In this document: one piece after another, positions 14,684 through 61,874 of the stretch | Position numbering within the stretch: position 1 is the stretch's first letter | How the letters are laid out: each line of letters opens with the position of its first letter | DNA from: Kiritimatiellia bacterium | GTDB lineage: Bacteria > Verrucomicrobiota > Kiritimatiellia > RFP12 > UBA1067 | Assembly: GCA_034003585.1 (NCBI GenBank) | Contig: JAVEYH010000002.1 | Coordinates: forward strand, 32,036-96,035 | Reading direction: 5' to 3' | Length of the DNA: 64,000 bases | Position numbers and translations under genes: made by a program | Notes under the pieces: generated by a model | The model's input: the letters and a program-made list of their open reading frames with translations, nothing else | What the model was told of the DNA's origin: nothing | The model's database searches: none

Positions 14684-15328
14684 ATGGGCAGAGCGCGCAA
14701 AGCCGAGATCGGCGACCGGATGGTGAAACGGTTTCCCCTGTATCTCCGTGTTTTGCGGGAGATGGCGGAGCAGGGTGAACCCTACGCTTCCGGAGCGGTG
14801 GTTGCCAAAGCGTTGTCGCTGGACCCGATCGTGGTGCGCAAGGATCTCTCCCGGACCGGCGTGCGCGGCACGCCGCGTCTGGGGTTTCCGCTTCGCGAGG
14901 TGATCGCCGCCATCGAACGTTTCCTCGGCTGGAACGCCCATACCGAAGCGGTACTGGCCGGCGCGGGGCGTCTGGGCTCCGCCCTGCTGGGGTACCCCGG
15001 TTTTCAGGACCAGGGATTCAAGATTGTGGCAGCCTTTGACGCGAATCCGCGGAAACGCGGCCGGATCGCGGGGGTGCCCGTCTATCCCGCGGATCAACTC
15101 GCCAACAAAGCCCGCACGCTGGGCGTGTCGCTCGGGATTCTCACGGTGCCGGCCGGCCAGGCGCAGGCCGCGGCGGACGCCATGATGGCCGGCGGGATCC
15201 GGGGAATCTGGAATTTCACGCCCGTACAGCTCGCGGTGCCCTCGGATGTGATCGTCAAACGCGAAGACCTGGCCGCCGGACTGGCGGTGCTCTCCCACCG
15301 GTTGCGTCAAGGGGGCGCCACCGCATGA
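14684..15328 (+). CDS. rex: Redox-sensing transcriptional repressor Rex.
   Basis: The internal ATG at 14684 (MGRARKAEIGDRMVKRFPLYLRVLREM...) gives a ~214-aa protein. It has a winged-helix N-terminus and a Rossmann NADH-binding domain (VLAGAGRLGSALLGY...KIVAAFD...GIRGIWNFTP). Confidence 0.85.
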   Translation: MGRARKAEIGDRMVKRFPLYLRVLREMAEQGEPYASGAVVAKALSLDPIVVRKDLSRTGVRGTPRLGFPLREVIAAIERFLGWNAHTEAVLAGAGRLGSALLGYPGFQDQGFKIVAAFDANPRKRGRIAGVPVYPADQLANKARTLGVSLGILTVPAGQAQAAADAMMAGGIRGIWNFTPVQLAVPSDVIVKREDLAAGLAVLSHRLRQGGATA

Positions 15329-17484: not shown

Positions 17485-20400
17485 CTACCGGAACAGGAGA
17501 ATCGTCCCCAAATCATGCACGAGCGTCACCTTGCCGGCGCCCGGCGTGGTGTCGTACTGAACCACCCACGTGCCGGGAAGATTGGGCGTCGCGGCGAAGG
17601 TGCCGGTGAGATTGCCCGAACAGGCGACGATCTCATACGAGTACCCCGCCATCCGCGAGACGTCGCCGATCACCAGCGTGAGCGTCGACAGATCCAAATC
17701 CCCCGCGACGGAAAGGGTATCCGTCAGGCCGTTCTCGCGCGTGTCAACCAGCAGAGTGCAACCGTCAAACACGGGTGACCCGTCGAGCGCCAGCGTGCCC
17801 ACTTCGCCCACACCGCCCGGAGCGACGGTTTCCGTCACGGTCAGGCTGTCACACCCGGAGATCGTCCCGCTGCCGCCGATGCCGGCCAGCGTCTGCGGCT
17901 GACCGTTCACGTCAAAGGTCGCGCCCGCGCCGACCGTAACCGTTCCGCCGGAAGCCAGGGAGCCGCCGTCCAGCTTCAGAATCCCGCCGCTCACACGCGT
18001 ATCGCCCAGATAGGTGTTCGCGCCGGACAACGCCAACGTGCCGCCACCGACCTTGACCAGCGTGTTGGAGCCGGAGATCACTCCGGAGAAGAGCGTGCTG
18101 CGGTTGTCGTTGCCGACAGTGAACGTCGCCCCGCGGCCACTGCCGTTGGCAATCCCGCCCGCACCCTCCAGCGAACCCACCTCCTGGTCAAGCCCGTTCA
18201 GGTCCAGCGTCCCGCCTTCCGAAACAAGCAGGGCCGTGGCGTCGGGCAACACATTGGTGGGAAAGGCGCATTCGAGCCCGAGCCACTTGTACCGCAGGCA
18301 CTCGGTGACCGAGTACGCGTCCGACAGGCTGAGCGCCGTACTGTAGACCGCCACCTCGTTGACATCGCCCTGGTATGAACGGAAAAGGGTTCCGCTGTAC
18401 GGCCGGCAGTCCCCGATCGCGGCGACCCAGGTCCGCGGCGTTTCGGCCAGGGCGGCCAACACGTGCGGCGCGCCTGCCGCAAACACCCTGTCCTCCGTAT
18501 CATTGACGAACATCCGTCCGCCGCATGAAAAGTCGTTTCCGTTGCCCGGATGGATCCACGAAGTCAGATTGGACTGCCGGATACTGATATCCTGTCCGTA
18601 CCCGCCCCAGAGGCCGCCGTTGTCCCTGTACCCGCGCACCTCGTTGACCACGAAAACCGAGCGCGACAGCGCGCTCTTGGACGCGATCAGGCAGTTGGTC
18701 CGGCCCCCGAAACGGACGGCCGGCAAACCGCTCGACGCATTGGTCACCAGTACCGGCTGCAGCACCGACACGTCCTGCGTGAAATGGACGCCGGCCCCGG
18801 ACGCGTCCGCCCACATGGTGACGTTCGACCCGTCCAGCGTCAGCAAATCGGCGCGTGCCGCATCGAGCCGGTACGCGAGCCCGTTGGTCGGAAGTTCCGT
18901 TTGCGTGCCCTGCAGCCGGAGGGTCCCCGCTTCGATGGTCGTGGCCCCGCTGTACGTGTTGAGTCCGCTCAGCGTCAGCGTGCCGTTCCCCGTCTTCACA
19001 AGCGAGACGGCGCCTTCGCCATCCCGGATCGCCCCCCAGAAGCGGCTGCCCGCACCGTCCGCACCGACCGTCAGCGTCGCGTCGCCGGCCGCGCTGTTGC
19101 TCACCACGCCCCCGCCCTCCAGCGCACCGGACGCCAAGCCCTCCCCGTTGAGGTCGAGCAGCCCGTTGACAGAGGCGGTCCGCATCGCCGAATCCGCACC
19201 CTCCACAACCAACGCGCCCGCCTGGACCTCGAAGGTTCCCCCAAACGGTTCCGCGTCGGTGAGGGTCAGGGTGCCCGCTCCATTCTGCACCACACGGCCG
19301 GTGCCGCGGATGGCGTTGGTGATCGTGGCATCGCCGTTGAGGGTGAACATCAGCACCCCGTCGTTGACCACCACCGGCCCGGGCGCCAGCGCCTGCGGCG
19401 CGGCGATCTCCAGCGTGCCGCGGCTGACGCGCGTTCCCCCCGTATACGTGTTGGAGCCGGTCAGCCGGATGATGCCGGCAAAAGCCGTGCCGGGGCAGCC
19501 GACCTCGAGACCGCCGGGGCCGGTGATCGGGCCGCTGAATGTCCCGATGGCGGCGGCCAATATTGACACGCTCACCCGCGCGTCCCGCATCAGCTCGACC
19601 GGTCCCGAGATCTCGCTGTCCCGCTCGAACACCACCGCGCCGAGCGGCTGGGACGCGCCGGCGCCCACACCCGCGAGATGCAGGGCATTGGTGACGTTCC
19701 CGGTGAACGTGACGCGGAACTGGCCGCCCCACGCCTCGTTGCCGTAGATGTACACGTCCCCGTCACTGAAACCGCGGCTGTTCGCGAGCGACACGCGGCC
19801 CGCCATGATGCGCGTCGGTCCGGTGTAGGTGTTGGCGGACGCGGTGAGCTGCAGATCCTCGTCCGGCCCGCCGCCCGCCAGCGTCAGCCCGTTCGAACCC
19901 GCGATCACACTCCCGAGCGTGGGGCCGAATTGATTCGACCGCCGCAAGTTATAGATGATGACGCCTTCCGAAGTCCCGAAATCGAGCGTGCCGCCGTTGA
20001 GGCCCGCCGTGACGCCGCTGGAGTTGTTGAGGATCACCCCGGCCGGATTCACGCCGTCGCCGACGGTCAGCGTCTGGCCGCTGTTGACGGTCAGCACCGC
20101 GCCGTTGTGCACGCGCAGCGCGTGGACATGGACGCTGTCCGTGGAGGCGTTGGCCGTCACATTGGCGATCGAGGTATCGCCGCCGCCGAGCCCGGACGTG
20201 TAGGCCGCCACGCTGAAGCCGTCCGTCGCGTCATAGGTGAGGAAATCGCAAGACCGGCGGTCATCATTGTGGATGCCGAAGACGGCCGGAACCATGCCGT
20301 TGACGGTCGCCACCCCACCGTTAACCAGGACTTTTTCCGTGCCGCCCAGCGTGGCGGTACCCGCGCCCGGCCAGATCGCCAGCACCCCGTACGTGTCGCG

Positions 20401-22767
20401 CTTCAGCACGCTGTTCTCCGCCGCGCCGGCCGCGCCGAGCGTCACGCTCAGACTGCTCTGGCTGCCGCGCGCGGGACGCAGCATCGAGACGCCGGGGCCG
20501 ACGGTTACGGTGTTCGCCGCGTCGCCATGGGCCACGGACATCGAAAGGTTGGCCCCGCTTCCGGACGGCGCGATCTCCAGCGTGCCGCCGTTGATCGTCA
20601 CCGGGCCGTATCCGAACGGCGTGCCGCCGGTTCCCTGCGCGGTCAGCGTTCCCGCGTTAAGGACCGAGGCGCCGGTATACCCGTTGTCCGCGAGGAACCG
20701 GAGCAGTCCGGGGCCGCTCTTGATCAGGCCACCGTCAACCGTGCCGCCGGTCGCGTTGGTGAAACCCTGATTGAAGGTCGTCGTGCTGCCGACGGTCGCC
20801 GCCTCGACGCGCGCGCCCCCTTCCCGGACGTTATAGCGGTGGTACGCGCCTGCCACGGAGGTCCGGGATCCGAGAAACCGCAGCAGACCGCCGTCGAAAT
20901 TCACGAACGTCGGGTGGGCCTCCTGCGACCCCACCGTTCCGAAGCCGCCCTGCATGATCAGCGTGCCGCCCGCCAGCGTGACCGTACCGGTGCTGGTGGT
21001 GCCGGCGGCTCCGTTTGACATCACGACCAGCCCGTCGGTGGTGACCTGCGCGTCATTCGTCACCACCAGCGAATGGGTCTTGCCGTCGCTGGCGATGCGC
21101 GTGTTGGCGTTCGCGATGTTCACGACCGCCGTGCCGCATGCCAGCAGGCCGAGCCCCTGACAGTGCTGGATATAGCCGATGTTCATGGTGCCGCCGCTGA
21201 CCGTGACGAAGATATCGTTGGTGTTGATGTTTCCCAGCGTGTTCTTGAAAAACGTGGCGCCGCCGGTCTGCAGATAGCGCCCCGTGCCTCCCAGCGCGCT
21301 GTCGAACAGGTGGGTCCCGCCGCGGATCTCGACCGGGTACCCCGGCGAGACCGTCAACGTCGCGCCCGTGCTGCTGCCGCCGTTGAACACCACCCGGGCA
21401 CCCGCGTTCTGCGTGAACCCGCCGCCGGAGAACGTCCCGCCCGCGATTTCGAGCGTGCCCGCCGAAACCGTGACCGCCGCGTTCGTGGTGCGGAGCGCGC
21501 CCAGCGCCAGCGTCGACTCCTGCGTTTTGGTGATCGCGCCCGAACCGTAAAGCGGCGTGTCGTTGGTCTCGCTCTCCGTGGTGTTGAGTTCAAGGGCCGA
21601 GCCGGATTCAAGGCGGATCTGCGCGGTGTTCGCCAAAAGGGTTCCGAGTGTGCCGCCCGTGACCGCCAGTTTGCCCCCGTCCACCACCGTCGGCCCGGCG
21701 TACGTTTGGGTGTTTGTGACCGTCATCGTGCCGGTCCCGGCTTTCGTCAGGCCGCCCGCCCCTGTAAAAACGTTGGCCAGCGAGAACGAGTCGTTTTTCC
21801 ACCCCAACTCCAGCGTGACGGGACCGTTCTCCGTATCCGCAAGGGTGAAGTCATTGGTGACCAGGAGGGTGCCGATGCGAAACGTGCCGATCCCCGGCGC
21901 GAAGGTCAGGTTCAGCCCCGGGAATCGCGCGTCGAACGTCACATTCTGCAGCGTGTTGGAATTCCCAGCCACAAAGGTCCCGGCCTCTTTGAAAGAGAAC
22001 GTTCCCCCGCCGTAGCACATGCCGGAGAACAGGCGTGTGGCCCCGTTCAGCCAGAATTGGATCGTGCTGGAGTGGTTGGTGAGCACGCCGCTGCCCGTCA
22101 AGGCCCCAATGTTGTCGGTCTTGTTCGCCTGATCAACCGTGCCGCCCGCCTGAATGTCGAGAACCGCGTAATTATTGATCTGGTTGTTCCCTCCGCACCG
22201 CAGCACGGCGCCATTTCCCACGGTGATCGTGCCGCTGCCGACATTCAATCCGTCGCTGTTGTCTTTGAACCGGAGGTCCAGCAGCCCGTTTTCCACCGTC
22301 AGGCCCGACGGCACGGTCAAATATTTCTCCAGCCGCAGCGTGCCCGTCCCCGCTTTTGAGATTGCCGTGCCGGCTGCGGGCGAGAGGGTCAGCGCCACCG
22401 TGGCGGTAACGGCGTTTCCCTCGACCGTGACCAACGCGGGGTTGCCGTTGTTGTTGAGCGTCACGGTGCTGTTCGTGAACAGGGTATCCGCGCCGGAGAC
22501 GTACAGTCCGCCAAGCGTCAGCCCGGCGACATTCTGGTCGACCCGCGCCGGCACCCCGTTGGTGAAGTAGGCCGTAAACCCCGCGCCGGCGGCGTACGCG
22601 CCGCCCTCCCAGTTGACCAGGTCACCCCATGCCCCGTCCCCGGAGGCCGTCCACACGCCGTCCGCAGCCGAAAGCGAACCGGCCGCCAGCGCGAGCGCCG
22701 CGATCTTTCGTCCGAATCCCGGCACCGCGATACGGATCCCGCGAGTGAAAAAACTTGTCTTGACCAT
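17485..22767 (-). CDS. Giant secreted protein of 1761 aa built from autotransporter-associated beta-strand (PATR) repeats, a Gly/Thr/Ser-rich beta-helix.
   Basis: The ATG at 22767 (MVKTSFF...AALALAAGSLSAADGVW, a signal peptide) has a GGAAAGG RBS, and the track TTG at 22788 is less likely. It contains dozens of units such as GTGTLTLSGLNTYSGATTIEAGTLRL, GGGTLALSGANTYLGDTRVSGGILKL and GSNTYTGGTRVSRGTLEI. No C-terminal beta-barrel or PEP-CTERM is recognisable. Confidence 0.8.
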   Translation of the reverse strand: MVKTSFFTRGIRIAVPGFGRKIAALALAAGSLSAADGVWTASGDGAWGDLVNWEGGAYAAGAGFTAYFTNGVPARVDQNVAGLTLGGLYVSGADTLFTNSTVTLNNNGNPALVTVEGNAVTATVALTLSPAAGTAISKAGTGTLRLEKYLTVPSGLTVENGLLDLRFKDNSDGLNVGSGTITVGNGAVLRCGGNNQINNYAVLDIQAGGTVDQANKTDNIGALTGSGVLTNHSSTIQFWLNGATRLFSGMCYGGGTFSFKEAGTFVAGNSNTLQNVTFDARFPGLNLTFAPGIGTFRIGTLLVTNDFTLADTENGPVTLELGWKNDSFSLANVFTGAGGLTKAGTGTMTVTNTQTYAGPTVVDGGKLAVTGGTLGTLLANTAQIRLESGSALELNTTESETNDTPLYGSGAITKTQESTLALGALRTTNAAVTVSAGTLEIAGGTFSGGGFTQNAGARVVFNGGSSTGATLTVSPGYPVEIRGGTHLFDSALGGTGRYLQTGGATFFKNTLGNINTNDIFVTVSGGTMNIGYIQHCQGLGLLACGTAVVNIANANTRIASDGKTHSLVVTNDAQVTTDGLVVMSNGAAGTTSTGTVTLAGGTLIMQGGFGTVGSQEAHPTFVNFDGGLLRFLGSRTSVAGAYHRYNVREGGARVEAATVGSTTTFNQGFTNATGGTVDGGLIKSGPGLLRFLADNGYTGASVLNAGTLTAQGTGGTPFGYGPVTINGGTLEIAPSGSGANLSMSVAHGDAANTVTVGPGVSMLRPARGSQSSLSVTLGAAGAAENSVLKRDTYGVLAIWPGAGTATLGGTEKVLVNGGVATVNGMVPAVFGIHNDDRRSCDFLTYDATDGFSVAAYTSGLGGGDTSIANVTANASTDSVHVHALRVHNGAVLTVNSGQTLTVGDGVNPAGVILNNSSGVTAGLNGGTLDFGTSEGVIIYNLRRSNQFGPTLGSVIAGSNGLTLAGGGPDEDLQLTASANTYTGPTRIMAGRVSLANSRGFSDGDVYIYGNEAWGGQFRVTFTGNVTNALHLAGVGAGASQPLGAVVFERDSEISGPVELMRDARVSVSILAAAIGTFSGPITGPGGLEVGCPGTAFAGIIRLTGSNTYTGGTRVSRGTLEIAAPQALAPGPVVVNDGVLMFTLNGDATITNAIRGTGRVVQNGAGTLTLTDAEPFGGTFEVQAGALVVEGADSAMRTASVNGLLDLNGEGLASGALEGGGVVSNSAAGDATLTVGADGAGSRFWGAIRDGEGAVSLVKTGNGTLTLSGLNTYSGATTIEAGTLRLQGTQTELPTNGLAYRLDAARADLLTLDGSNVTMWADASGAGVHFTQDVSVLQPVLVTNASSGLPAVRFGGRTNCLIASKSALSRSVFVVNEVRGYRDNGGLWGGYGQDISIRQSNLTSWIHPGNGNDFSCGGRMFVNDTEDRVFAAGAPHVLAALAETPRTWVAAIGDCRPYSGTLFRSYQGDVNEVAVYSTALSLSDAYSVTECLRYKWLGLECAFPTNVLPDATALLVSEGGTLDLNGLDQEVGSLEGAGGIANGSGRGATFTVGNDNRSTLFSGVISGSNTLVKVGGGTLALSGANTYLGDTRVSGGILKLDGGSLASGGTVTVGAGATFDVNGQPQTLAGIGGSGTISGCDSLTVTETVAPGGVGEVGTLALDGSPVFDGCTLLVDTRENGLTDTLSVAGDLDLSTLTLVIGDVSRMAGYSYEIVACSGNLTGTFAATPNLPGTWVVQYDTTPGAGKVTLVHDLGTILLFR

Positions 22768-22976
22768 ACTCAACCGCCTTTCCTGCAAGAATCACCACAT
22801 CCATTTTCGTTTGATTACGAAGGCAAAAGGATACCCCAAAAGGGGGCGTGTGCCAAGCCGGTTGCGGCGAAAAACAGCTTTATGCTTTTACTCCACACCC
22901 CCCTTCTGCTATAAGAAGCGTGTATTGCGACGGCTGAAAGGAACCTTGCCGTCAATCCGGCTCTCCGAGGTTTTCC

Positions 22977-25900
22977 GTGTATCTAAAACAGATTGAACTG
23001 ACCGGTTTCAAGAGCTTTGCGGACAAGACCCGCCTGCAGTTCGAGCCCGGCATGATTGCGATTGTCGGGCCCAACGGCTGCGGCAAAAGCAATGTCTCGG
23101 ACGCGATCCGCTGGGTATTGGGCGAACAGCGCCCCACCGCCTTGCGTTGCGCCAAGATGCCGGACGTGGTGTTCAACGGCACGGATTCGCGCAAGCCGCT
23201 CGGCATGGCTGAGGTTTCCATCACCTTCGCGGACTGCGACGGGATCCTGGAAACCGAGTTCAACGAGGTAACCGTCACCCGCCGTGTCTTCCGTTCCGGC
23301 GAAGGCCAGTACTTCATCAACAAGACCCCCTGTCGCCTTAAGGATGTCCACCGTCTTTTCATGGGGACGGGCATCGGCACGACCTCCTATTCGGTGATGG
23401 CCCAAGGCCAGATCGACGTCATCCTCTCCTCGCGGCCGGAAGACCGCCGCGCCGTTTTCGAGGAGGCGGCCGGCATCACGAAATTCAAGGCCGACCGCAA
23501 AGAGGCGCTGCGCAAGATCGAGCAGACCGAGGCCAACCTGCTGCGGCTCGCCGATGTCATCCGGGAGGTGAAGCGCCAGATCGGCACGCTGCAGCGGCAG
23601 GCCGGCAAAGCCCAGAAGTACAAGGAACTGCGCGATGAGCTGCGCGGCCTCGACCTCTTCCTGACGCGCCGGCGCCTCGCCGCGCTGGACATCCGCATCC
23701 GCGAGCTGGACACCTCGATCCACGCGCTGAACGAACAGTGGGTCTCCCATCAGGAGTTCGTGGCCGAGGCGGAGGCGGAGTCCTCCCGCATCCACGGGCT
23801 GATCCATGAGACTGAGGAGCGGATCGCGGACCTGACCGAACAGGCGGCGCAGGCCGACAACCGTTACATCCGCGCCCAGGAGGTCATCAAGGTCAACGAG
23901 CAGCGCATCGCCGAATACCGCGCCTGGGCGGAGCGCGACAACCGTGAGATTTCCGAGACCCGGACGCAGATCGAACAGCTCCGCCTGCAACAGGAATCGC
24001 TCGCGCAGAAGCGGTTGCTCCTGCGGCAGACCGAGGAAGTCGAACAGAACGCGCTGAAAGAGGCGCAGGCCCGGTTCGACGCGCACCGGCTGCAGATCGA
24101 ACAGACGCGCGGGCAGCTCCAGCAGGACCGGCAGAAATCGGTCGAGTGCGAACGCCGCACCGCTCAGATCCAGCAGGAACTGGCGGCCATGGAGGCGCGG
24201 CAGCGCGAGCTGCTCATGAAGCGGGACCGCCTTGCCGCCGAACACGGCCAGGTGCAAGAGACGTTGGCGGCCGCGGAACACGCCTGCGCCGAGGTCCGGG
24301 CCCGCCTTGACACGCATACGGCTGAAGTCGCCGCGGCGGACGAGCGTTACGAAACGCTCGACACCGAACGGGCGGCCGTGACGGAAGAGCTGCATGCCTT
24401 GCAGACCGAGTCCGCGCGTCTCCAGTCCGAGGCCGCGGCCAAACGGGCGCAACTCGAGTTGCTGAAAGACGCGGGCGAGATTCGCGACGCCTATGCGCCG
24501 GGCTCGCAACTCTTGCTGGACCCCGCCAACCCGTTGGGACTCGAACCGCAAACCGTGCTCGGCCCGTTGGCGGAGATGTTCAACGCGCCGCCGGACCTGC
24601 GCCTCGCGCTGGAAGCCGCCTTGCGCGCCTGGCTCGACGCCGTAATCGTGCGCGACGCCGGGGCCGCGCGACGCATCTTCGAGATGCTGCTCGCCCGCGG
24701 CACCCCCGCGGCCGCGCGCATCATCGCCGCCTCGGTTGACGGGCCGGGCGACCGCACCGACACGCCTCCGCCCCCCCCGGGTCCGGGCCTCACGCCGCTG
24801 TTGGACCGCGTCACGGTCGAAAAGCCGTTTGCCGGTGCGGCGCGCCGTCTGTTGGGGACCGTCTTTCTGGCGGAGTCGCGGGAGGCTGTGCCGGAAGCCG
24901 TACCCGCCGGGTGTAGCATCGTCACACGCGACGGCGTGATCGCGCATGCCGACGGGTGCGCGGAGCTGTGGATGCCGGACAGCCCGGTCTCCAGCCCGCT
25001 CGCCCGCAAGCTGCTCGCCACCGAAACCGCCGACCAGCTCACGGTGCTGGAAACAACGCTCAGGACCACCCGGACCCGCCAAGAGCAGTTGGCGGCGCGT
25101 TCGTCCGAACTCAGTCTCCACCTGACCCAGATGCGGAAAACGCTGGATGAGAACCGGCGCCGCGCCGCGCAGGCGGAAGGCGAGCACCAGAGCGTTTCCC
25201 GTGATGCGGAGCGGGCCCGCGCCCGTCTGGACCAGGTCTCCCGCGAGCTGAACGCGCTCACTGAACAGACTTCCGGGGATGAGGGGATCTGTGCCGCGCG
25301 CACAGACGAGCTGGACGGGCTCACGGCCACGCGCGCCCGCTTGCTGGAGCGCATCGCCGAGAACTCGACCCTGCTGCAGGAGCGGGAGGGCGTCTTCGGC
25401 GAACTCAGCCACGCCCTCACCGAATGCCGGATCCGGGTTTCCAGCGTGTCGCAGCAGATCGAACACGCCGCGTCCCAGGAAGAGGCCGTCCAGACGCGCA
25501 TGGACGAACTCGACCGCACGTTGCAGGGCCGGAACCGCGGCGTGATGTCGTACGACGAAAGCATCGGACGCCTCACGCAGGAGATCGCCTCCCTGGAGGC
25601 CAACCTCGACCCTATGCGGATCACGGCCGAAACGCTCCACCTGAAGATCGAGGAGACGCGCCGCGAACGCGCCACCCGCCAGCGCGAGCTGGAGAAGACC
25701 GACGCCACCCTGACCGAGCGCCGCCGCGCGCTCGAAGCCGCGCGCGAACAGCGCAGCCGCGCGGAGATCGATCTCGCCGAATCGCGGATGCGCCGACAGA
25801 ACCATCTGGACCACATCTACAACGAATACGGCCTCTCGCCCGAGGAACTGATCGCCCATGCGGACCCCGCCTGGCCGGAGGGCGGACCGCCGCCGGTTCC

Positions 25901-26684
25901 CGAGATCGAGGCGCGCGCGGCATCCCTCACCGCCGACATCCAGGCGCTTGGCCCCGTGAACCTGGTGGCGATCGAGGAGTACAAGGAGCTGGAGGAGCGG
26001 TACACCTTCCTCAAGGCCCAGGAGGAGGATCTGCTCAAGTCCAAAGAGCAGATCCTGGAACTGATCGCCATGATCAACAAGAAATCGGGCGAGATGTTCC
26101 AGTCCACCTTCGATCAGGCCAACGCCCATTTCGACACGATGTTCACCCGGCTCTTCAACGGCGGCCAGGCCAAGCTCGTGCTGCTGGAAAACGCCGAGGA
26201 TCCGCTCGAGTGCGGCATCGACATCATCGCCCGCCCGCCCGGCAAACGGCCGCAGTCAGTGACCCTGCTCTCCGGCGGCGAACGCACCATGACCGCGGTG
26301 AGCCTGCTCTTCGCGATCTTCCTGATCAAGCCGGCCCCGTTCTGCATGCTCGACGAACTGGATGCCGCACTGGACGACAGCAACATCGGGCGTTTCGTGC
26401 AAACCCTGAAAGACTTCCTGAAACACTCGCAGTTCCTGATCATCACGCACAACCAGCATACCATCGCCGGTTCGGATATCGTTTACGGCGTGACACAACA
26501 GGAGAAGGGCATCTCGAAGATCGTCTCGATGCGCCTCAAGGAGATCGGGGTCAAACCGTTGGCGCTGGGCGCGCCCGAGCCTGCGGCGGACGCGGTCTCG
26601 GCCGCGGAAGAGCCGCGGGCTCGGCGCGGCCGCAAAAAGAAGAGCGGGGACGCCGCCCCCGAGCTCAGCGCGCCAGCCGAATGA
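22977..26684 (+). CDS. smc: Chromosome segregation protein SMC.
   Basis: It is 1235 aa and begins MYLKQIELTGFKSFADKTRLQFEPGMIAIVGPNGCGKSNVSDAIRW (Walker A). It has long coiled coils, a hinge and a C-terminal LSGGERTMTAVSLLFAI...MLDELDAALDD. A basic tail sits at the C-terminus. Confidence 0.95.
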   Translation: MYLKQIELTGFKSFADKTRLQFEPGMIAIVGPNGCGKSNVSDAIRWVLGEQRPTALRCAKMPDVVFNGTDSRKPLGMAEVSITFADCDGILETEFNEVTVTRRVFRSGEGQYFINKTPCRLKDVHRLFMGTGIGTTSYSVMAQGQIDVILSSRPEDRRAVFEEAAGITKFKADRKEALRKIEQTEANLLRLADVIREVKRQIGTLQRQAGKAQKYKELRDELRGLDLFLTRRRLAALDIRIRELDTSIHALNEQWVSHQEFVAEAEAESSRIHGLIHETEERIADLTEQAAQADNRYIRAQEVIKVNEQRIAEYRAWAERDNREISETRTQIEQLRLQQESLAQKRLLLRQTEEVEQNALKEAQARFDAHRLQIEQTRGQLQQDRQKSVECERRTAQIQQELAAMEARQRELLMKRDRLAAEHGQVQETLAAAEHACAEVRARLDTHTAEVAAADERYETLDTERAAVTEELHALQTESARLQSEAAAKRAQLELLKDAGEIRDAYAPGSQLLLDPANPLGLEPQTVLGPLAEMFNAPPDLRLALEAALRAWLDAVIVRDAGAARRIFEMLLARGTPAAARIIAASVDGPGDRTDTPPPPPGPGLTPLLDRVTVEKPFAGAARRLLGTVFLAESREAVPEAVPAGCSIVTRDGVIAHADGCAELWMPDSPVSSPLARKLLATETADQLTVLETTLRTTRTRQEQLAARSSELSLHLTQMRKTLDENRRRAAQAEGEHQSVSRDAERARARLDQVSRELNALTEQTSGDEGICAARTDELDGLTATRARLLERIAENSTLLQEREGVFGELSHALTECRIRVSSVSQQIEHAASQEEAVQTRMDELDRTLQGRNRGVMSYDESIGRLTQEIASLEANLDPMRITAETLHLKIEETRRERATRQRELEKTDATLTERRRALEAAREQRSRAEIDLAESRMRRQNHLDHIYNEYGLSPEELIAHADPAWPEGGPPPVPEIEARAASLTADIQALGPVNLVAIEEYKELEERYTFLKAQEEDLLKSKEQILELIAMINKKSGEMFQSTFDQANAHFDTMFTRLFNGGQAKLVLLENAEDPLECGIDIIARPPGKRPQSVTLLSGGERTMTAVSLLFAIFLIKPAPFCMLDELDAALDDSNIGRFVQTLKDFLKHSQFLIITHNQHTIAGSDIVYGVTQQEKGISKIVSMRLKEIGVKPLALGAPEPAADAVSAAEEPRARRGRKKKSGDAAPELSAPAE

Positions 26685-29548: not shown

Positions 29549-30100
29549 TTATGCGGTGATCACCGCCAGAAACGTGGCCTCCGCGCCCTCCTCCGCCCGC
29601 ATGCCGTGCGGCACCGAGGCGTCGAAATAGATGCTGTCCCCCGGCGCCAGCACCGTTTCATGGCCGCCCACCGAAAGCCGCAGCCGGCCGCTCAGCACGT
29701 AATTGAACTCCTGGCCGGGATGGGTGTTGAGATGCGGGGTGTCCAGCGCGGGCCCCACCGTCACAATGAACGGCTCCATGGTTTTGCCCGCGAACCGCGC
29801 GCCCAGCGCCTCGTAGTGATAGGCGTGCCGCCGCTCGACCACCGGGCCGCCTCCTTTCCGCGTCACATGGAAGACCCGGGCGTGCGCGTCGCCGCCTGTG
29901 AGCAGGGCCGTGACCTCGACCTGATAAAAGGCGGCCAGCCGCGAGAGGTAGCTCATGGGCACGTCTTCCGCCCCGGTCTCATACCGCATGTAGGTTTCGG
30001 GCGGGACCCCGGTTCGGGAGGCGACCTCCCGACACGAACGCTCCGACGCTTCCCTCAACCCCCGGATCCGCACCGCGATCTCGCGCCTCTCGTTTGTCAC
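29549..30100 (-). CDS. XRE-family HTH transcriptional regulator with a C-terminal cupin domain.
   Basis: It is 183 aa with an N-terminal HTH (IRGLREASERSCREVASRTGVPPETYMRYETG) and a C-terminal cupin (HPGQEFNYVLSGRLRLSVGGHETVLAPGDSIYFDASVPHGM). Confidence 0.75.
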   Translation of the reverse strand: MTNERREIAVRIRGLREASERSCREVASRTGVPPETYMRYETGAEDVPMSYLSRLAAFYQVEVTALLTGGDAHARVFHVTRKGGGPVVERRHAYHYEALGARFAGKTMEPFIVTVGPALDTPHLNTHPGQEFNYVLSGRLRLSVGGHETVLAPGDSIYFDASVPHGMRAEEGAEATFLAVITA

Positions 30101-47890: not shown

Positions 47891-47988
47891 AAAAGCCGTA
47901 CCGAAGCGTTCCCCTCCCTTTCGTCTCCAATACGGATCTCGGCTTTTTGCGCTCGAAAGGTGTCCGGCTCCTGCGCTACACTACGGGC

Positions 47989-49122
47989 ATGAATCCGATG
48001 CGTTCACCCTTTCTCACCCTTGTGCTGCTCGCCATGCTCGCGTTTCTGGCGCTGCAGTTCCGGGAGGCGCGCCGGCGCGACGCGCCCACGGCACCCCCCG
48101 CGGCGGTTCCGGTGCCCGCGTCCAAAAGACCGCAGGCGCCGGAGGCGGAGCGGCCCTGCCCCGGATCCGACGCCATCGCGGTTTACAAACGCGTCTCACC
48201 CTCGGTGGTCGCCGTGGCCAACCACGCGCTGATCCGGCGCGGCTTTTTCGGGTTTCAACTCTACGAGGTGCCGCAGGGCGCGGGCTCCGGTTTCGTGTGG
48301 GACAGGAAGGGCCATATCGTCAGCAACTACCATGTGGTGCATCAGGCCAGCACGCTGACCGTCACTTTCCCCGACGGATCGCGGTACGACGCCGTCCTGG
48401 TCGGCATCGCGCCGGATTATGATCTGGCAGTGCTGAAGATCAGCGCACCCCCCGAAAAACTCGTGCCCGTCACGGTTGCCGCCTCGCGCGCGCTGCAGGT
48501 CGGGCAGCAGGTCTACGCGATCGGCAATCCGTTCGGCCTCGACACCACCCTCTCGGCCGGTTTGGTCAGCGCGCTCGGCCGCACCATCACCTCCATGACC
48601 GACCGCAAGATCTACGATGTCATCCAGACTGACACCGCGATCAACCCCGGCAATTCCGGCGGACCCCTGCTCTCCTCGTCCGGCAGGCTGGTGGGGGTCA
48701 ACACCGCGATCCTCAGCCCGAGCGGCGCCTACGCCGGCATCGGCTTCGCAGTCCCCTCGGACACCGTTTCCCGCGTGGTGCCGCAGCTCATTGAGAAGGG
48801 CCGGGTCACGCGCGCCGGGCTCGGCGTGGACCTGCTGCCCGATCATGTGACCGCCCGCGCGGGCATCGCGGGCGTGGCCCTGTACGCAGTGGCGGAACGG
48901 ACACCCGCCGCGCGCGCGGGTCTCGAAGGGATCGGCGTCAGCCGGCTCGGGGATCTGATTTTCGGCGATGTGATTCAGGCCGTGGACGGCATCCCGGTGG
49001 ACACGATCGAAGCGCTGCAAGCCGTGCTCGACCCCCGACGGCCGGGCGAACAGGTCCGGCTGACCGTAACCCGCAACGGCAAACGGCGGGATGTGACCCT
49101 GGCGCTGATCGAAGAGGAGTGA
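47989..49122 (+). CDS. HtrA/DegP-family periplasmic serine protease (S1C) with one PDZ domain.
   Basis: Start taken at Met-15 of track ORF 47947..49122 (MNPMRSPFLTLVLLAMLAFLALQF), read as a TM/signal segment. It has the catalytic triad H (NYHVVHQ), D (DLAVLKI) and S (GNSGGPLL) plus a C-terminal PDZ. Confidence 0.8.
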   Translation: MNPMRSPFLTLVLLAMLAFLALQFREARRRDAPTAPPAAVPVPASKRPQAPEAERPCPGSDAIAVYKRVSPSVVAVANHALIRRGFFGFQLYEVPQGAGSGFVWDRKGHIVSNYHVVHQASTLTVTFPDGSRYDAVLVGIAPDYDLAVLKISAPPEKLVPVTVAASRALQVGQQVYAIGNPFGLDTTLSAGLVSALGRTITSMTDRKIYDVIQTDTAINPGNSGGPLLSSSGRLVGVNTAILSPSGAYAGIGFAVPSDTVSRVVPQLIEKGRVTRAGLGVDLLPDHVTARAGIAGVALYAVAERTPAARAGLEGIGVSRLGDLIFGDVIQAVDGIPVDTIEALQAVLDPRRPGEQVRLTVTRNGKRRDVTLALIEEE

Positions 49123-54877: not shown

Positions 54878-57553
54878 TCACACCGCCTTGCCGCGTTTCC
54901 GCCCCTTTTTCGGTTTCGGTTCGGCCTGGGGCGCGGCGTCCGCCTTTGCGGCGCCTCCCTTTTTTCCCTTGCGGGCCGGCGCGGCCGTTTCCTCACCCGG
55001 CGTGCGCAGCGGCAGCTCGTCCTGCATCCGGAAATGCAATCCCGTCCCATCCTCTTTCAGCGTCGTCTCGACCGTGCCCGCAGTCAGCACGCCGCGCAAC
55101 AGCTCTTCCGCGAGCGGGTCCTCCAGGTGCCGCTCCACCGTGCGCCGCAACGGGCGCGCGCCGAGCGCCGGATCGAATCCCTTGCCGACCAGAAAGGCGG
55201 CCGCCGCCTCCGTCACCTCCAGGCAAATCCCCTTTGTTGCGAGACGCTTGCGGACCCCGGCCAGCTCGATGTCCAAAATCCGGACCACATCCTGCCGGTC
55301 CAGTTTCCGGAAGACGATGATCTCGTCAAACCGGTTCAGCAATTCCGGTTTGAACACGAGTTTCGCGGACTGGATCATCCGTTCACGCAGGCGGTCATAA
55401 TCATCCGCCGCGCTCTCGCGGCCGAAGCCCAATCCCTGTCCCTGCTTCGCGTAGTCGAATCCGAGGTTCGAGGTCAGGATCACCACTGTGTTGCGGAAAT
55501 CCACCTGACGTCCCAGACTGTCCGTGAGGCGGCCCTCCTCCAGGATTTGGAGCAGCATGTGCATCACATCCGGATGCGCCTTCTCCACCTCGTCGAACAG
55601 CACGACACTGTAAGGCCGCCGGCGTACGCGTTCGGTAAGCTGCCCCCCCTCTTCGTGCCCCACATAACCAGGAGGCGAGCCGATGAGCCGCGAGACCGTG
55701 AATTTCTCCATGTACTCCGACATGTCGATCTGGATCAGGGCTTTGCCGTCGCCGAACATCTTCTCGGCCAGGGTCTTGGCCAGCAGGGTTTTGCCCACAC
55801 CGGTCGGCCCCAGAAAAATGAAGGAGCCGATCGGCCGCCGCGGATCTTTCAAATCGGCCCGCGAACGGCGCAGCGCCCGGGCGATCGCCCGCACCGCGGG
55901 GGTCTGCCCCACGACCGTCTCTTCCAGATCGTTTTCGATATGCAGCAGGCGCGAGAGTTCAGACTGGCTCATGCGTTTGATCGGTACCCCCGCGATCCGC
56001 GCCACCGTTTCCGTGACATCGTCCGCCGTCACCGTCAGTGTCTTTTCCGCGTGCTCGGTCTTCCACGCCGCCACGATGGCATCGAGTTCCTGACGGGCCT
56101 TGCGCTCCTCATCGCGCAGCGCCGCGGCTTCCTCGAAATGCTGCTCGCGGATCGCGACGTCCTTTTTCTGGCCCATCTCGCGAATCCGTTGCTCCTGCTC
56201 GCGCAAATCCGGCGGACGCGCCGAAACCCGCATCCGCACCCGCGCGCCGCTCTCATCGATCGCGTCGATCGCCTTGTCCGGCAGTTGCCGCCCGGGCTGG
56301 TAACGCGCCGTCAGCTTCGCGGCCGCGGTCAGGGACTCCTCTTCGTAGGCGACGTTGTGGTGCGCGGCGTAGCGCGGCGCCAGGCCCTTCAGGATCTCGA
56401 CCGTCTCCTCCACGGTCGGCTCGTCCACACGCACGGTCTGGAAGCGGCGCTCCAGTGCGGCGTCCTTTTCAATGTGACGCCGATACTCATTGAGCGTGGT
56501 GGCGCCGATACACTGCAGCTCGCCGCGCGCCAGCGCCGGCTTGATGATGTTCGCCGCGTCCATCGCGCCCTCGGCACCGCCGGCGCCGACAATGGTGTGC
56601 AGTTCGTCGAGAAACAGCACGATGTTCGTTTCGCGGCGGACCTCATCGACCACCGCCTTGAGCCGTTCCTCAAACTGGCCGCGGTACTTGGTGCCCGCCA
56701 CCAGCAGCGCCATGTCCAGCGCGATCACACGCTTGTCGCGCATGCGCTCCGGCACATCGCCCGACGCGATCGCCTGCGCCAACCCCTCCACCACGGCCGT
56801 CTTGCCGACCCCGGCCTCGCCCAGCAGCGCCGCATTGTTTTTGGAACGGCGGCAGAGGATCTGGATCAGGCGTTCCAACTCATTCGCGCGCCCCACCATC
56901 GGATCGAGTCCGCCTTTCTTGGCCAGTTCGGTCAGATCGCGTCCGAACGCATTCAGCGCGGGTGTCCGGCTTCGCTCTTTCCTGCCGCCCGCGGCCTCCT
57001 CCGGTTTCCCGGTCGGCGCGGCCCCGGCCTCACGCTCCTCCCCGCCGGAACCCTCACCGGACCCGAACACGCCCTCCTCCTCGTCCTCTTCCCCCTCCTC
57101 CATGCCGAGACGGATCTGTTCGATCACCGCCTCCAGCCGGACATGGAGCGATTGGAGCACCTGCGCGGCCACGCCCTCGCCTTCACGCAGCAGCGCCAGC
57201 AGCAGATGTTCCGTGCCCGCCTGCGGCTGATGCATGGCATGCGCCTCGGCTACCGCCAAATGCAGCACTTTCTTGGTGCGCGGCGTATGCGGCAGCTCGC
57301 CCTTGGTCTTGGTCTCGCCGCCGAACCCGACCATCCGCTCCACCGCGATGCGCACATCCTCCAGCGACACATCCAGCTCTTCCAGCACCTCGACCGCCAC
57401 GCCCTCGCCCAAAGCGATGAGTCCCAGCAGGAGGTGCTCGGTCCCGATGTACGGATGATTGAAACGGTCCGCCTCGCGGGCCGCCAAATGAAGCGCGCGC
57501 TGCGCGCGTGCCGTGAAATTCCCGAATCCGTCCATACCCCTCACCCTTTCCAT
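54878..57553 (-). CDS. clpC: ATP-dependent Clp protease ATP-binding subunit ClpC (two Clp_N repeats, UVR motif, two AAA+ modules).
   Basis: It is 891 aa with Clp_N repeats ([10 protein letters not shown] and [10 protein letters not shown]), Walker A motifs [10 protein letters not shown] and [10 protein letters not shown], and [14 protein letters not shown]. An acidic Gly-rich insert lies between the N-domain and D1, and a Lys-rich tail sits at the C-terminus. Confidence 0.9.
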
Positions 57554-58599
57554 TTCACGTTGGCCAGCTTCTGATTCAGGAAGGCGGCCCGCATCTCATC
57601 GCGCTGATCCGGATTCAGATCCGCCTGCAGCCCGCTCTGCATATGTCCCGGCTGCATCAGCAGAATCAACTGATTCACCATGCCCGGCTTGAGCCGGGAA
57701 AACCGTCCCAGCACCGCACCCAGCCGCACGGCCGACAACAACTCCAGCGCCTCCGCGGCGGACATCAGCCGCGCGTTCTGCAGCACGCTGAGCGCGCGCG
57801 CCAGACAATCGGTCAACAGCAGCGGCGATTCCCGCAGCAGGCGCTCGCGCGCGTTCAACTCCTGGCGGATCACCTCCGCGACAATCCGCGTGACGCGCCC
57901 GACAATCGCTTCCTCCTCCACACCAAGCGTATCCATGTTGGAAATCTGATAGATCTGGCCGACGGCTTCGGAGCCCTCTCCGCCGATTCCGCGCACCAGA
58001 AGCCGCATCCGTTCGAGACCGCGCGCCACCGCCTCGACCTCACCCAGCAGCCGCAGCCCGAGCAGATGGACCATCACGCCCGCGCGCAATCCGGTGCCCA
58101 CGTTGCTGGGGCAGGCCGTCAGATATCCCAACCGCGGCGACCACGCGTACGCCAGATGGGGTTCGAGCAGCGCATCCATGCGGGCCGCCCGCTGCCACGC
58201 GCGGTTCAGGTCGAAGCCGTCGGCGAAACCCTGTATCCGCAGGTGGTCCTCCTCGTTCACCATGACGCAGACCGCGCTTTGGGGCTGAAGGGCGATCCCG
58301 CCTCCCGAAGTCCGGCCGAGCAGATCGCGGCTGATCAGGTTCTGCTCGCACAACATGTCCAGATACCGCGCGTTGAAATCCGAGAGCGGCCGGAGCGCCA
58401 GATCCGGCGCCGCCGCCTCAAACGCCGTGCGCACGCGGTCAAACACGCGCGCGTGATCATGCTCCGTCGCCCAATCCGGAAAGCGTTCGCCCTCCAGATT
58501 CCGCGCCAGCCGCGCGCGGCACACCAGCGCGACCTCCTCGGCGCGGGCTCCGCCTGCCGGGGTCGCGGAAGGTTTCCGTTCCGGTGTCAGCTTTTTCAT
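57541..58599 (-). CDS. mcsB: Protein arginine kinase McsB (ATP:guanido phosphotransferase family).
   Basis: It is 352 aa with [11 protein letters not shown] (phosphagen-kinase active-site Cys motif) and EEDHLRIQ. It overlaps clpC and mcsA by 13 and 4 nt. Confidence 0.85.
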
Positions 58600-59144
58600 G
58601 ACACGCCTCCCGGCGCCGCGTCCCGTCCCCCGTCCAGCGTGCGCAGCCGGTCGCGCAGGGCGATCGCCTCCTCATACCGCTGCTCCCGCACCGCCTCGTC
58701 CAACGCGCGTTCCAGTTCCTGCCGGCAACAGGCCGCCCCGGCGTTCCGCGGGGCCTTCCCCGTATGCCGCGTCGCGCGGTGAAGCTCCTGCAGCGCGGCA
58801 TCCAACTCACCGGCAAAGGCCTCATAACAGGCCGGACAGCCCAGACGCGACCGCTTGCGGTACTCGCTCCGGCGTATGCCGCACACCGGACAGCTCGGTT
58901 CCGCGAGCACCGCCTGTTTGTCCGCGATTTCAAACGCGGCATCCACAATCATCCCGAGCAACGGCAGAACCGGGCCCTCCGGCGCACGCCCTTCCGCAGC
59001 CTGCCGGTTACCCCGGTCCGGCGCGGGCGGTTTCGCAGCCGCCTGCGCGCACGCCTGGCAGACAAACCATTCCCGGACCTCATCCCCCTCCGGCCTCCGG
59101 AGGACGGTTTCCGCATCAGCCTTATGGCACAATTCGCATTTCAT
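58596..59144 (-). CDS. mcsA: McsA-like activator of McsB (CxxC zinc fingers plus UVR domain).
   Basis: The ATG at 59144 (MKCELCHKADAE...VCQACAQ...CPVCGIRRSEY...CPACYEAF) gives four CxxC pairs. The C-terminal UVR is RQELERALDEAVREQRYEEAIALRDRLRTL. Confidence 0.65.
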   Translation of the reverse strand: MKCELCHKADAETVLRRPEGDEVREWFVCQACAQAAAKPPAPDRGNRQAAEGRAPEGPVLPLLGMIVDAAFEIADKQAVLAEPSCPVCGIRRSEYRKRSRLGCPACYEAFAGELDAALQELHRATRHTGKAPRNAGAACCRQELERALDEAVREQRYEEAIALRDRLRTLDGGRDAAPGGVS

Positions 59145-59360
59145 CCGTTTTCCTGAAAAGGAAAAGAGTATAGCAGAAAGCGGAACGTACCGCAAACCGG
59201 CGCAAGCCACCTCGCGCGGTGTTTTGAGGGAGGGGGACGCGTCACCTCCGGACGCGCCCGGCGCAGCACAACGCCCCCCGTCACGAAAACCGGGCTGTGC
59301 CGCTGCCGGAAGCTGCCCGACTTCCCGGACCCCGACTTCCCGGTTGCCACACCGCGCGGA

Positions 59361-60005
59361 TTGTACTACGCTACCGGCATGCTTACCCCTACCTCCCCGT
59401 TACGGATCGGCGTCCTGGGTTCCGGTTCCGGATCCAACATGCAGTCCGTGCTCGACGCGATCGAAGCCGGCACCCTGAACGCCGAGTTGCGGCTGGTCCT
59501 GTCGGATGTGCCGGAGGCCAGAATCCTGAACCGCGCCGCGCGGCACAAGATCCCGAACGCCTGGCTCGATTGCGCCCCCTTCAAGACCAAACTGGACGGC
59601 GCGGCGGAACAGCGCTGCATCGCGCTGCTTCACGAGCATGGCGTCGACACCGTGATCCTCGCGGGCTTCATGCGCATCGTGAAACCGGGTTTGCTGAACG
59701 CCTTCCCCCAACGCGTGCTGAACATCCATCCCGCGCTGCTTCCGGCGTTCCCGGGGCTGGCGGGGTGGAAACAGGCCTTGGAGTACGGCGTCAAGCTGGC
59801 GGGGTGCACCGTCCACTTTGTGGACGCGGGAACGGACACCGGCCCGATCATCCTCCAGCGCGCCGTGCCGGTCCTCACGGACGACACGCCCGAAACCCTG
59901 CACGCCCGGATTCAGGCGCAAGAGCATCTCGCGTATCCGGAAGCGCTGCGACTGCTCGCCGCCGGACGGCTCCGCATCAACGGCCGGCGCGTGGACATCC
60001 TTTGA
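59361..60005 (+). CDS. purN: Phosphoribosylglycinamide formyltransferase PurN.
   Basis: It has RIGVLGSGSGSNMQSVLDA and the active-site region NIHPALLPAFPG...HFVDAGTDTGPII. The true start may be Met-7 at 59379. Confidence 0.85.
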   Translation: MYYATGMLTPTSPLRIGVLGSGSGSNMQSVLDAIEAGTLNAELRLVLSDVPEARILNRAARHKIPNAWLDCAPFKTKLDGAAEQRCIALLHEHGVDTVILAGFMRIVKPGLLNAFPQRVLNIHPALLPAFPGLAGWKQALEYGVKLAGCTVHFVDAGTDTGPIILQRAVPVLTDDTPETLHARIQAQEHLAYPEALRLLAAGRLRINGRRVDIL

Positions 60006-60044: not shown

Positions 60045-61874
60045 CTACGCTTCCGGAGCCGCGCGCGGCTCTTCCGCCGCAGGCAAACCCTCCGCTACGG
60101 GCGCGGCGCCTTCCGCGGGAGCCTCGACAACAGGAGCGGGCACGACGACCTCTTCCGTGCTGTCCGGCACCGTCGCCGCAACAGGCGCGGGGGCCTCGAC
60201 GGCAGGAACGGCTGCCGCCGTTTCCGTGCTGTCCGGCACCGTCGCCGCAACGCGGGCCGGCTCCTCTTTGGCGGATTTGCCGGGTGCGGGTGCGGCCGGC
60301 GGCGGACGCCGCGGGCCGCCCTGCTGCCCGCCGGCCGCCTTTTCGCCCGGCAGGAACCGGAATGCGGGATATTCGAGCGGACCGCTCAGCACATCGTTGT
60401 AGAACTGAACCACATGCCCCTTCTCCACCAGCCACGCGAGCTGCACCAGCGTCTCTTTGAGTTTCGCCTCATCGCCGGCCGCCAGTGCGGTGGCAAGTTC
60501 GGCCTTGGTGCAGGCGGGGTGCTCGTTGACGAAGGTCAACACATCGCGCAACGCCTGGACCGCGTGCGCGGGATCCAACGGCACGGCCGGTTTGAGCATC
60601 ACAAAGTCCTGCCCCTTGGCGTCATTGACGCGGAACAGGTGCAGACTGCGATGACGGAAGGCGCCTCGCAGCGCGAAAAAGAGTGAGGCCGGAAAGCGGC
60701 GCTCGCGCGTCAGGGTGTCCTTCAGGGCGTAATAGAGCGGTTTGCTCAAGGTCTGCATCGCGACCGACGCGGTGCAGAGCAGATGACGGACCGACGCGAT
60801 CTGCGCGGGTAAAATCTCGCGCAGGAAAACCAACTCGGCGGTTTCACGCTCCATGGCCGGAGCCTTGGGCTCGGGCTCGGCCGGGATCTCCGCGCCCCCG
60901 TCTTCCGTCGCGGAGGCAACAGGCTCGACAACGGTCGGGGCCGCACCTTTCCGGCGATAGATTTTTTTGAGGGTGCACTGCTGCCGCCACTTTTCGATAC
61001 TCTCGGCATCGCGCACCATCTCGATGCGCGCACGGTAGGCTTCCTCCGACAGATCCGCATACCGCGTCCGCAGCATCTCATGCACCTTGGCGTTGAAACT
61101 GTGATGGTTCGGGGGACCGAGCAGCACACCGCTCATGCCGCAACGCGCCACGCACACGAACACGCCGGCCGGCGGCTCGCACGGCACCTCCTCCACATCG
61201 AAGAAATCCTCCATGTGGCGGTTCACCAGATGCGCCCGGATGTCCTCTTCCGCCAGCGCGGGCATGCCGCACACTTTACACTGGAACAGCGGCACCGGCT
61301 GATCCTTGAGCGGTTCGATGCGGACCAGACAGGAGTTGGGGTTGTCGAGAAACAGCCAGGCGATGTCACGCAGCGGGAACGCGCGGTGCGAGGTCTGGAT
61401 GCGCCGGATCACGGCGCCCAGCGCCTTCTGCTCCGGCAGCACGCGGATATCGACCGGCAGCGCGGGCTGCTCGGGCCGGAACGGGCGCGGACCGCGCCGC
61501 TCGGGCCGCGGCCCCGCGTGCTCGAAGGGGGCCGAGGCGGGCGCCGCGCCGCGCAGATCCGCCACCGCGCCGCGCGACGCGGGCCGCGGCATGCCGCCCC
61601 GGAAGTCCCCGCGCGCCTCCTCACGGCGCGGGGGCGGACGCCGGTCGGGACGGCGCCGATCCCGGTCGCCGCCGTCAAAGCGCGCCGGCCGGCGGTCGCG
61701 GCCGCCGAAACGATCGTGGCTCTCCCCGCCATCGTCGTACCGGTCGTGCCGATAGCGCTGGAGTTGATCCTCCGGAGAGGTGCGCGCCCAGTTCGGCGCA
61801 AAATTCAGATCCAGCACAATCCCGTCGTTTTCCTGTCCGTCCGCGGCAGGCTTCGCCTCTTCGTTCTCGCTCAT
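60045..61874 (-). CDS. Hypothetical protein of 609 aa with an N-terminal Arg/Asp-rich low-complexity region, a central globular domain carrying a CxxC pair, and a C-terminal Ala/Pro/Val/Glu-rich tail with a tandem repeat.
   Basis: It has a long uninterrupted ORF with coding-like composition, but I recognise no family. A 30-bp perfect direct DNA repeat at 60152..60181 and 60221..60250 encodes the duplicated AATVPDSTE peptide. Confidence 0.5.
   Translation of the reverse strand: MSENEEAKPAADGQENDGIVLDLNFAPNWARTSPEDQLQRYRHDRYDDGGESHDRFGGRDRRPARFDGGDRDRRRPDRRPPPRREEARGDFRGGMPRPASRGAVADLRGAAPASAPFEHAGPRPERRGPRPFRPEQPALPVDIRVLPEQKALGAVIRRIQTSHRAFPLRDIAWLFLDNPNSCLVRIEPLKDQPVPLFQCKVCGMPALAEEDIRAHLVNRHMEDFFDVEEVPCEPPAGVFVCVARCGMSGVLLGPPNHHSFNAKVHEMLRTRYADLSEEAYRARIEMVRDAESIEKWRQQCTLKKIYRRKGAAPTVVEPVASATEDGGAEIPAEPEPKAPAMERETAELVFLREILPAQIASVRHLLCTASVAMQTLSKPLYYALKDTLTRERRFPASLFFALRGAFRHRSLHLFRVNDAKGQDFVMLKPAVPLDPAHAVQALRDVLTFVNEHPACTKAELATALAAGDEAKLKETLVQLAWLVEKGHVVQFYNDVLSGPLEYPAFRFLPGEKAAGGQQGGPRRPPPAAPAPGKSAKEEPARVAATVPDSTETAAAVPAVEAPAPVAATVPDSTEEVVVPAPVVEAPAEGAAPVAEGLPAAEEPRAAPEA

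Follow-up and report, generated by a model that had tools for sequence, protein, structure and literature searches.

In Firmicutes such as Bacillus subtilis and Staphylococcus aureus, the genes for the degradation of proteins tagged with phosphorylated arginine (pArg) lie in the class III heat-shock operon ctsR-mcsA-mcsB-clpC. The roles of the McsA domains, including zinc domains Z1 and Z2, and of the NEEDH/Cys motif of the McsB kinase have been described, and Z2 stands in structurally for the N-terminal phosphagen-kinase domain that McsB is missing (PMC11046695). The pArg receptor site of McsB and the part played by R194 in its octamer were defined in a separate study (PMC8370763), as were the pArg pockets of the ClpC unfoldase (PMC12583610). 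Homologues of McsA and McsB exist in some Gram-negatives (PMC11046695). Chlamydia trachomatis, a member of the Planctomycetes-Verrucomicrobia-Chlamydiae (PVC) superphylum with a Gram-negative envelope, has mcsAB (CT676/CT675) and a ClpC that, together with ClpP1P2, degrades only arginine-phosphorylated casein; no CtsR is reported in these two papers (PMC10128030, PMC11708050). The 64-kb stretch of contig JAVEYH010000002.1 analysed here (the whole of it hereafter referred to as the window) carries the same three genes as the Firmicute operon, in the same order and tightly coupled. Their products share with the Firmicute proteins the zinc fingers of McsA, the NEEDH motif, catalytic Cys and receptor site of McsB, and the pArg pockets, M-domain and ClpP loop of ClpC. 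We consider it highly probable that the three genes form an operon typical of Kiritimatiellia, which encodes a complete pArg mark-and-degrade module and has a σ70-type promoter and no CtsR.

The genes are three co-oriented open reading frames (ORFs) occupying positions 54878..59144 of the window. The features referred to below are as follows.

58596..59144, minus strand: mcsA, 182 amino acids from a conserved ATG (MKCELCH), predicted McsB activator
57541..58599, minus strand: mcsB, 352 amino acids, predicted protein arginine kinase
54878..57553, minus strand: clpC, longest ORF of 891 amino acids, AAA+ unfoldase
57110..57526, minus strand: N-terminal domain of ClpC, residues 10-148, with two predicted pArg pockets
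56999..57109, minus strand: acidic, Gly-rich linker between the N-terminal domain and the first AAA+ domain (D1) of ClpC, residues 149-185, a gap in the alignment to B. subtilis ClpC
54881..55066, minus strand: extra C-terminal segment of ClpC, residues 830-891, with a Lys/Arg-rich end
59167..59195, minus strand: predicted operon promoter, defined by conservation
59361..60005, divergent from mcsA: purN

A scan of GTDB species gave 13 related loci, all in metagenome-assembled genomes (MAGs) labelled Kiritimatiellia/Kiritimatiellae, Lentisphaerae or Verrucomicrobiota. The McsB of one of them, L001 (JAPXSY010000001, a Kiritimatiellia MAG), is 93% identical to that of the window. An earlier note, made from the letters of this DNA alone, had placed co-oriented mcsA, mcsB and clpC genes here, with a divergent purN upstream and with overlaps of 4 nt and 13 nt between the three genes. 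The ORFs and the full-length family and structure matches described below bear out the genes and their positions, and purN lies where it was reported. The 4-nt overlap of mcsA and mcsB (ATGA) is also real. The 13-nt overlap of mcsB and clpC probably is not: it arises only when the longest clpC ORF is chosen. In nine related ClpC sequences the first residue is the one equivalent to Met7 (MNGFGNF/MDGFGNF), and in L001 a synonymous AAA>AAG change in mcsB removes the upstream clpC ATG. On these two grounds the true clpC start is likely Met7, at position 57535, which would give a product of 885 amino acids and likely leave a 5-nt gap after the mcsB stop codon. The start of mcsA, ATGAAATG(C/T)GA(A/G), is kept in 13 of 13 loci.

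The mcsB product has a single Pfam match, PF00217 at residues 66-248 (E 1e-55), and the NCBIfam models that it matches are those of protein arginine kinases only. Its residues 21-345 align to the solved McsB structures of B. subtilis (8wtb/6tv6) and Geobacillus with an E-value of about 6e-64, while true arginine and creatine kinases match over the catalytic core only and with much weaker E-values. The protein has a catalytic domain of the phosphagen-kinase type, lacks the N-terminal domain of phosphagen kinases, and carries the McsB dimerisation domain at its C-terminus. The catalytic residues of arginine kinases, whose possible loss the earlier note had considered, are present: the NEEDH motif stands at 115-119 and Cys163 aligns with the catalytic C167 of B. 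subtilis McsB. In the dimerisation domain, R333, D334 and R337 correspond to the pArg receptor-site residues R337, D338 and R341 of B. subtilis. Close homologues of the protein carry a precomputed PF27454 assignment. Homology thus confirms the identification of the mcsB product as a predicted protein arginine kinase.

Residues 1-172 of the mcsA product align with McsA of B. subtilis (8wtb_B, E 1.6e-14), and each of the four CxxC pairs falls on its counterpart there: C3/C6 and C29/C32 form zinc finger Z1, and C85/C88 and C104/C107 form Z2. The zinc domains are followed by a coiled-coil/UVR region at residues 143-170, and the UVR motif was detected with PF02151 (E 4.5e-7). The description of this protein as McsA-like, with four CxxC pairs and a UVR motif, therefore holds, and the features looked for in a McsB activator, namely two zinc domains, then a coiled-coil/UVR region, in a gene adjoining mcsB, were all found. 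Single-chain McsA-McsB fusions of 515-550 amino acids occur among the nearest McsB representatives (clusters P0128, P0130, P0144, P0230 and P0266). For cluster P0128, which bears the label 'hypothetical protein [Kiritimatiellia bacterium]', the alignment of the first ~190 residues to the window McsA (E 7e-14) takes in MKCELCH. Such fusions within the same class support functional coupling of the two predicted proteins in this lineage.

In the clpC product Pfam recognises two Clp_N repeats, AAA, AAA_lid_9, UVR, AAA_2 and ClpB_D2-small. Among solved structures B. subtilis ClpC scores highest (888 bits, compared to about 700 bits for ClpB). The Walker A and Walker B motifs are each there twice, the UVR M-domain retains the conserved Phe (QHFEEAA), and the ClpP-docking loop GLGFG at 707-711 corresponds to YVGFN of B. 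subtilis, with LGF kept in all orthologues. The whole plan of a class I Hsp100 protein is there: a double Clp_N, D1, a short UVR M-domain, the second AAA+ domain (D2) and a (V/L)GF loop. The earlier note had proposed an alignment of the pArg-binding residues of the N-terminal domain with those of B. subtilis ClpC. In this alignment T14, E39, T90 and E115 correspond to T7, E32, T81 and E106, and they are invariant among the nine related ClpC sequences; B. subtilis R5 is replaced by N12. The N-terminal domain is therefore one with two predicted pArg pockets.

An insert between the N-terminal domain and D1 and a basic tail, both suspected beforehand to be missing from Bacillus ClpC, are indeed peculiar to the window protein when the two are aligned. 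The linker is 37 amino acids long (149-185) compared to 9 in B. subtilis, about 28 longer and acidic. The tail after the last aligned residue is 62 amino acids (830-891) compared to 18, about 44 longer and basic. Among the nine related ClpCs the linker varies in sequence and is acidic in eight (net charge −6 to −10, 12-15 Asp+Glu); in the ninth, from locus L010, it is nearly neutral (net charge −1, 8 Asp+Glu). The last 20 residues are basic, with a net charge of +4 to +10, in all nine complete orthologues. The acidic linker and the basic tail are real traits, typical of the lineage, and both segments are probably disordered. A separate observation concerns clpC of locus L006 (11236..11886, in a MAG labelled Verrucomicrobia), which is interrupted in frame by a stop at codon 217 (AKKG*LDPVVGR), with homology continuing downstream; an assembly error, pseudogene formation or recoding could account for this.

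The nearest McsB clusters are named Kiritimatiellia/Kiritimatiellae, with a few labelled Lentisphaerae or Verrucomicrobiota, and Kiritimatiellia is a member of the PVC group. L001 is syntenic with the window over aconitase, a 609-amino-acid ORF, purN, mcsA, mcsB and clpC. The window itself encodes outer-membrane functions: MlaE/MlaD, a LolA-like protein, a TolC-like outer-membrane efflux protein (OEP), AcrB-type resistance-nodulation-division (RND) pumps and HlyD-type fusion proteins. Because of this diderm gene content the host is not a Firmicute; it is a diderm Kiritimatiellia bacterium of the PVC group, in agreement with the PVC-like, Gram-negative origin that had been guessed from the letters. 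In all 13 related loci the genes follow the order mcsA-mcsB-clpC, at McsB identities of 60-93%, while the genes that flank the triad are common only to close pairs of loci. Since the order is kept while the flanking genes differ, the triad is a conserved unit. A search of the 13 loci for a conserved neighbour, a regulator or a YwlE-type phosphatase in particular, found none common beyond close pairs.

A strict scan for the σ70 consensus calls no promoter upstream of mcsA, the −35 element matching at 3 of 6 positions only. The promoter was defined instead by conservation in the aligned upstream regions. It consists of a −35 element TTGCGG (59195..59190), a 17-nt spacer with an extended −10 TG (59175..59174), and a −10 element TATACT (59172..59167), and 22 nt separate its end from the mcsA ATG. 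The string TTGCGG-N14-TGNTANNNT is found once in the window, where 0.02 occurrences are expected by chance, and once per locus in eight related loci, always just 5′ of mcsA; three further loci have TTGAAT as the −35 element. The spacer is strongly conserved and GC-rich, and no clear repeat or palindrome common to all loci was seen in it. We infer from this conservation that a σ70-like extended −10 promoter drives mcsA-mcsB-clpC in place of the CtsR-controlled promoter of the Firmicute operon.

No CtsR gene, no CtsR box above chance and no CIRCE element was found in the window or the related loci. This is in line with the earlier note, which had described the operon as lacking ctsR, with no CtsR box upstream of mcsA. 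A CtsR query validated against PDB 3H0D gave no tblastn match at E < 0.3 in the window and the 13 loci, nor does a ctsR gene head the operon in any of them. About 40 ORFs of the window were scanned against Pfam, which revealed no CtsR, HrcA, low-molecular-weight phosphatase or ClpP. CtsR boxes (A/GGTCAAA-NAN-A/GGTCAAA, at most 3 mismatches) occur at chance level only, three times in the window compared to 1.4 expected, none of them within 6 kb of the promoter, and a search of the window for CIRCE, the HrcA operator, gave no match. Weak, non-significant CtsR matches (E 0.3-4) were obtained in L002, L005, L007, L008 and L009; in these the end of CtsR, its last 20-28 residues (PERDELRARMLKAML), is paired with the pArg-receptor helix at the C-terminus of McsB.

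A hairpin UUUUCCU/AGGAAAA (59145..59166, minus strand) covers the Shine-Dalgarno-like AGGA of mcsA and was considered as an RNA thermometer. This candidate was rejected: its folding energy (−6.9 kcal/mol, z −1.09) is no better than that of shuffled sequences, transcription probably starts downstream of its 5′ arm, and apart from the window only L001 has it.

By homology with the B. subtilis and Chlamydia systems, the module would work as follows. The operon would be transcribed from the conserved σ70-type extended −10 promoter directly 5′ of mcsA. McsA, with its two zinc fingers, would bind McsB and activate its kinase, and McsB would phosphorylate exposed arginines, chiefly those of unfolded or aberrant proteins. 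Tagged proteins would be captured by the pArg pockets of the ClpC N-terminal domain, whose occupancy would switch resting ClpC to the active hexamer (PMC12583610). ClpC would then thread the substrate into ClpP, encoded elsewhere, docking through the LGF loop. With no CtsR repressor or operator found in the window, the loop by which McsB feeds back on CtsR in Firmicutes, inactivating it, would be missing. Probably, the operon is driven by a housekeeping-type promoter and control is exerted after transcription; McsA, autophosphorylation and a phosphatase, if one exists, are candidates for this role.

Several observations weigh against a complete pArg module. The McsB scores fall below the NCBIfam equivalog cut-offs (320 versus 385 bits for NF002194, 301 versus 500 for NF053707), and McsA, although it matches the NCBIfam McsA model end to end, reaches 67 bits with a cut-off of 210. 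For McsB these are, however, the best families and the only ones matched, which indicates a divergent subfamily of the predicted kinase. At its receptor site S285 of B. subtilis is not conserved, A281 standing in this position with a Ser at 280. The arginines of the octamer latch are not conserved either (B. subtilis R190 and R194 are replaced by G186 and A190). Geobacillus McsB works as a dimer, and we treat the R194 latch, a substrate filter, as a feature of the B. subtilis protein and not as one that defines the family. No YwlE-type pArg phosphatase and no clpP was seen within the 64 kb of the window, and a ctsR gene may lie elsewhere in the genome. Finally, the pArg pockets are conserved in ClpC1 of Mycobacterium tuberculosis as well, which is the best solved relative of the N-terminal domain (E about 3e-36) and has the same domain plan. 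Unlike the window clpC, the gene for ClpC1 is not in an mcsAB operon, and Mycobacterium is not known to have a McsA or McsB partner. Because of this, the pockets of ClpC taken alone do not prove the use of pArg.

Among other explanations, the one that survives best is that the module is mainly regulatory, with McsAB phosphorylating and removing a dedicated transcription factor other than CtsR, such as HrcA or a repressor specific to the lineage, and so working as a stress switch and not as a tag for general quality control. We regard this as possible but doubtful; it is compatible with a pArg mark-and-degrade module. The main substrates of McsB in Firmicutes are the repressors CtsR and HrcA (PMC11046695), a role in a developmental switch was proposed for Chlamydia (PMC11708050), and the conserved GC-rich spacer of the promoter could hold an operator. 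Yet none of the 13 loci has a regulator gene linked to the triad, and neither operator motif searched for was seen near the promoter, whose spacer has no repeat or palindrome shared by all loci.

A reading wider than that of a Kiritimatiellia module, which we put forward only tentatively and hold to be rather improbable as a whole, is that the single-operon triad without CtsR is old and vertically inherited in Kiritimatiellota, in the wider PVC group and in other diderm phyla. In that case Gram-positive bacteria would not have invented the pArg degron, and the coupling to CtsR would be a later addition in Firmicutes. The linker and the tail of ClpC could replace the control by adaptors or CtsR, for example by gating the N-terminal domain or the resting state.

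It is unlikely that ClpC acts mainly as a chaperone or disaggregase independent of ClpP, with pArg being an allosteric activator only and with the linker and the tail providing lineage-specific control. ClpC of Chlamydia and of cyanobacteria is indeed known to act as a chaperone independently of ClpP (PMC10128030), pArg by itself is enough for allosteric activation of ClpC (PMC12583610), and the two extra segments are conserved in character; however, every orthologue has kept the LGF loop for docking to ClpP.

Still less likely, to a degree that we find very hard to credit, is a recent horizontal gain of the cassette from a Firmicute, with loss of ctsR in the transfer and no integration into the physiology of the host. 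The gene order is that of the Firmicute operon minus ctsR, and horizontal gain of mcsAB was suggested for Chlamydia (PMC10128030). But in G+C and G+C at third codon positions the operon equals the neighbouring genes and the rest of the window, the triad with its own promoter is conserved across 13 divergent Kiritimatiellia loci, and among the McsB representatives named by taxon the nearest, at 287-251 bits, come from Lentisphaerota, Kiritimatiellia and Verrucomicrobiota, while the named Firmicute cluster scores 232 bits. A transfer in the distant past, to the ancestor of the PVC group, may have taken place.

Least probable of all, to the point of being negligible, is that 'McsB' is a small-molecule phosphagen (arginine) kinase for energy buffering and not a protein kinase: arginine, creatine and taurocyamine kinases share with it the ATP:guanido phosphotransferase fold of PF00217, and NCBI names its relatives only 'ATP--guanido phosphotransferase', but it lacks their N-terminal specificity domain, the alignment to McsB structures takes in the dimerisation domain specific to McsB along with the pArg receptor site, the phosphagen kinases match it in the catalytic core alone and far more weakly, and mcsB is translationally coupled to mcsA, to which it is fused in relatives.

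We return, then, to a pArg mark-and-degrade module without CtsR. The earlier note thought such a module noteworthy outside Gram-positive bacteria. The module itself is borne out, but its novelty was overstated. 'Protein arginine kinase' is found in public annotation of Kiritimatiellia, Lentisphaerota, Verrucomicrobiota (including Opitutales), Latescibacterota, Handelsmanbacteria and Dependentiae, and the find is a fairly ordinary one because Chlamydia is already known to have the same system and annotations of related genomes name it as a matter of routine. No paper in the searched literature deals with both McsB and a non-chlamydial PVC taxon; the Kiritimatiellia cassette is undescribed there, yet it is not a new kind of system and reveals no new mechanism. 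With it, a free-living diderm PVC lineage joins the carriers of a complete pArg tagging and degradation module, in support of the view, already put forward in the work on Chlamydia, that bacteria other than Gram-positives also mark proteins for degradation by arginine phosphorylation. In C. trachomatis the mcsAB operon is separate from clpC, whereas here all three genes stand in one conserved block, with a conserved promoter and no CtsR. Cultured Kiritimatiellales are tractable organisms in which to ask how a system without CtsR is controlled.

Other regulators and proteases encoded in the window are not linked to the operon. They are a NikR-like protein (7924..8598, minus strand), a Rex-like protein with Put_DNA-bind_N and CoA_binding domains (14543..15328, plus strand), an HTH_31-cupin protein (29549..30100, minus strand) and a DegP/HtrA-type PDZ protease (47947..49122, plus strand). 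The 609-amino-acid ORF between purN and aconitase (60045..61874, minus strand) matches no Pfam or NCBIfam model, and L001 has a copy of it in syntenic position that is 83% identical. Its N-terminus is rich in Arg and Asp, it contains a C2H2-like motif (CKVCG...HLVNRH), and 'AATVPDSTE' is repeated at the C-terminus. A 415-amino-acid ORF (8777..10024, minus strand), likewise with no Pfam match, has an unusual G+C of 0.88 at the first codon position. Two ORFs are very large: 17485..22788 on the minus strand (1767 amino acids) and 22977..26684 on the plus strand (1235 amino acids).

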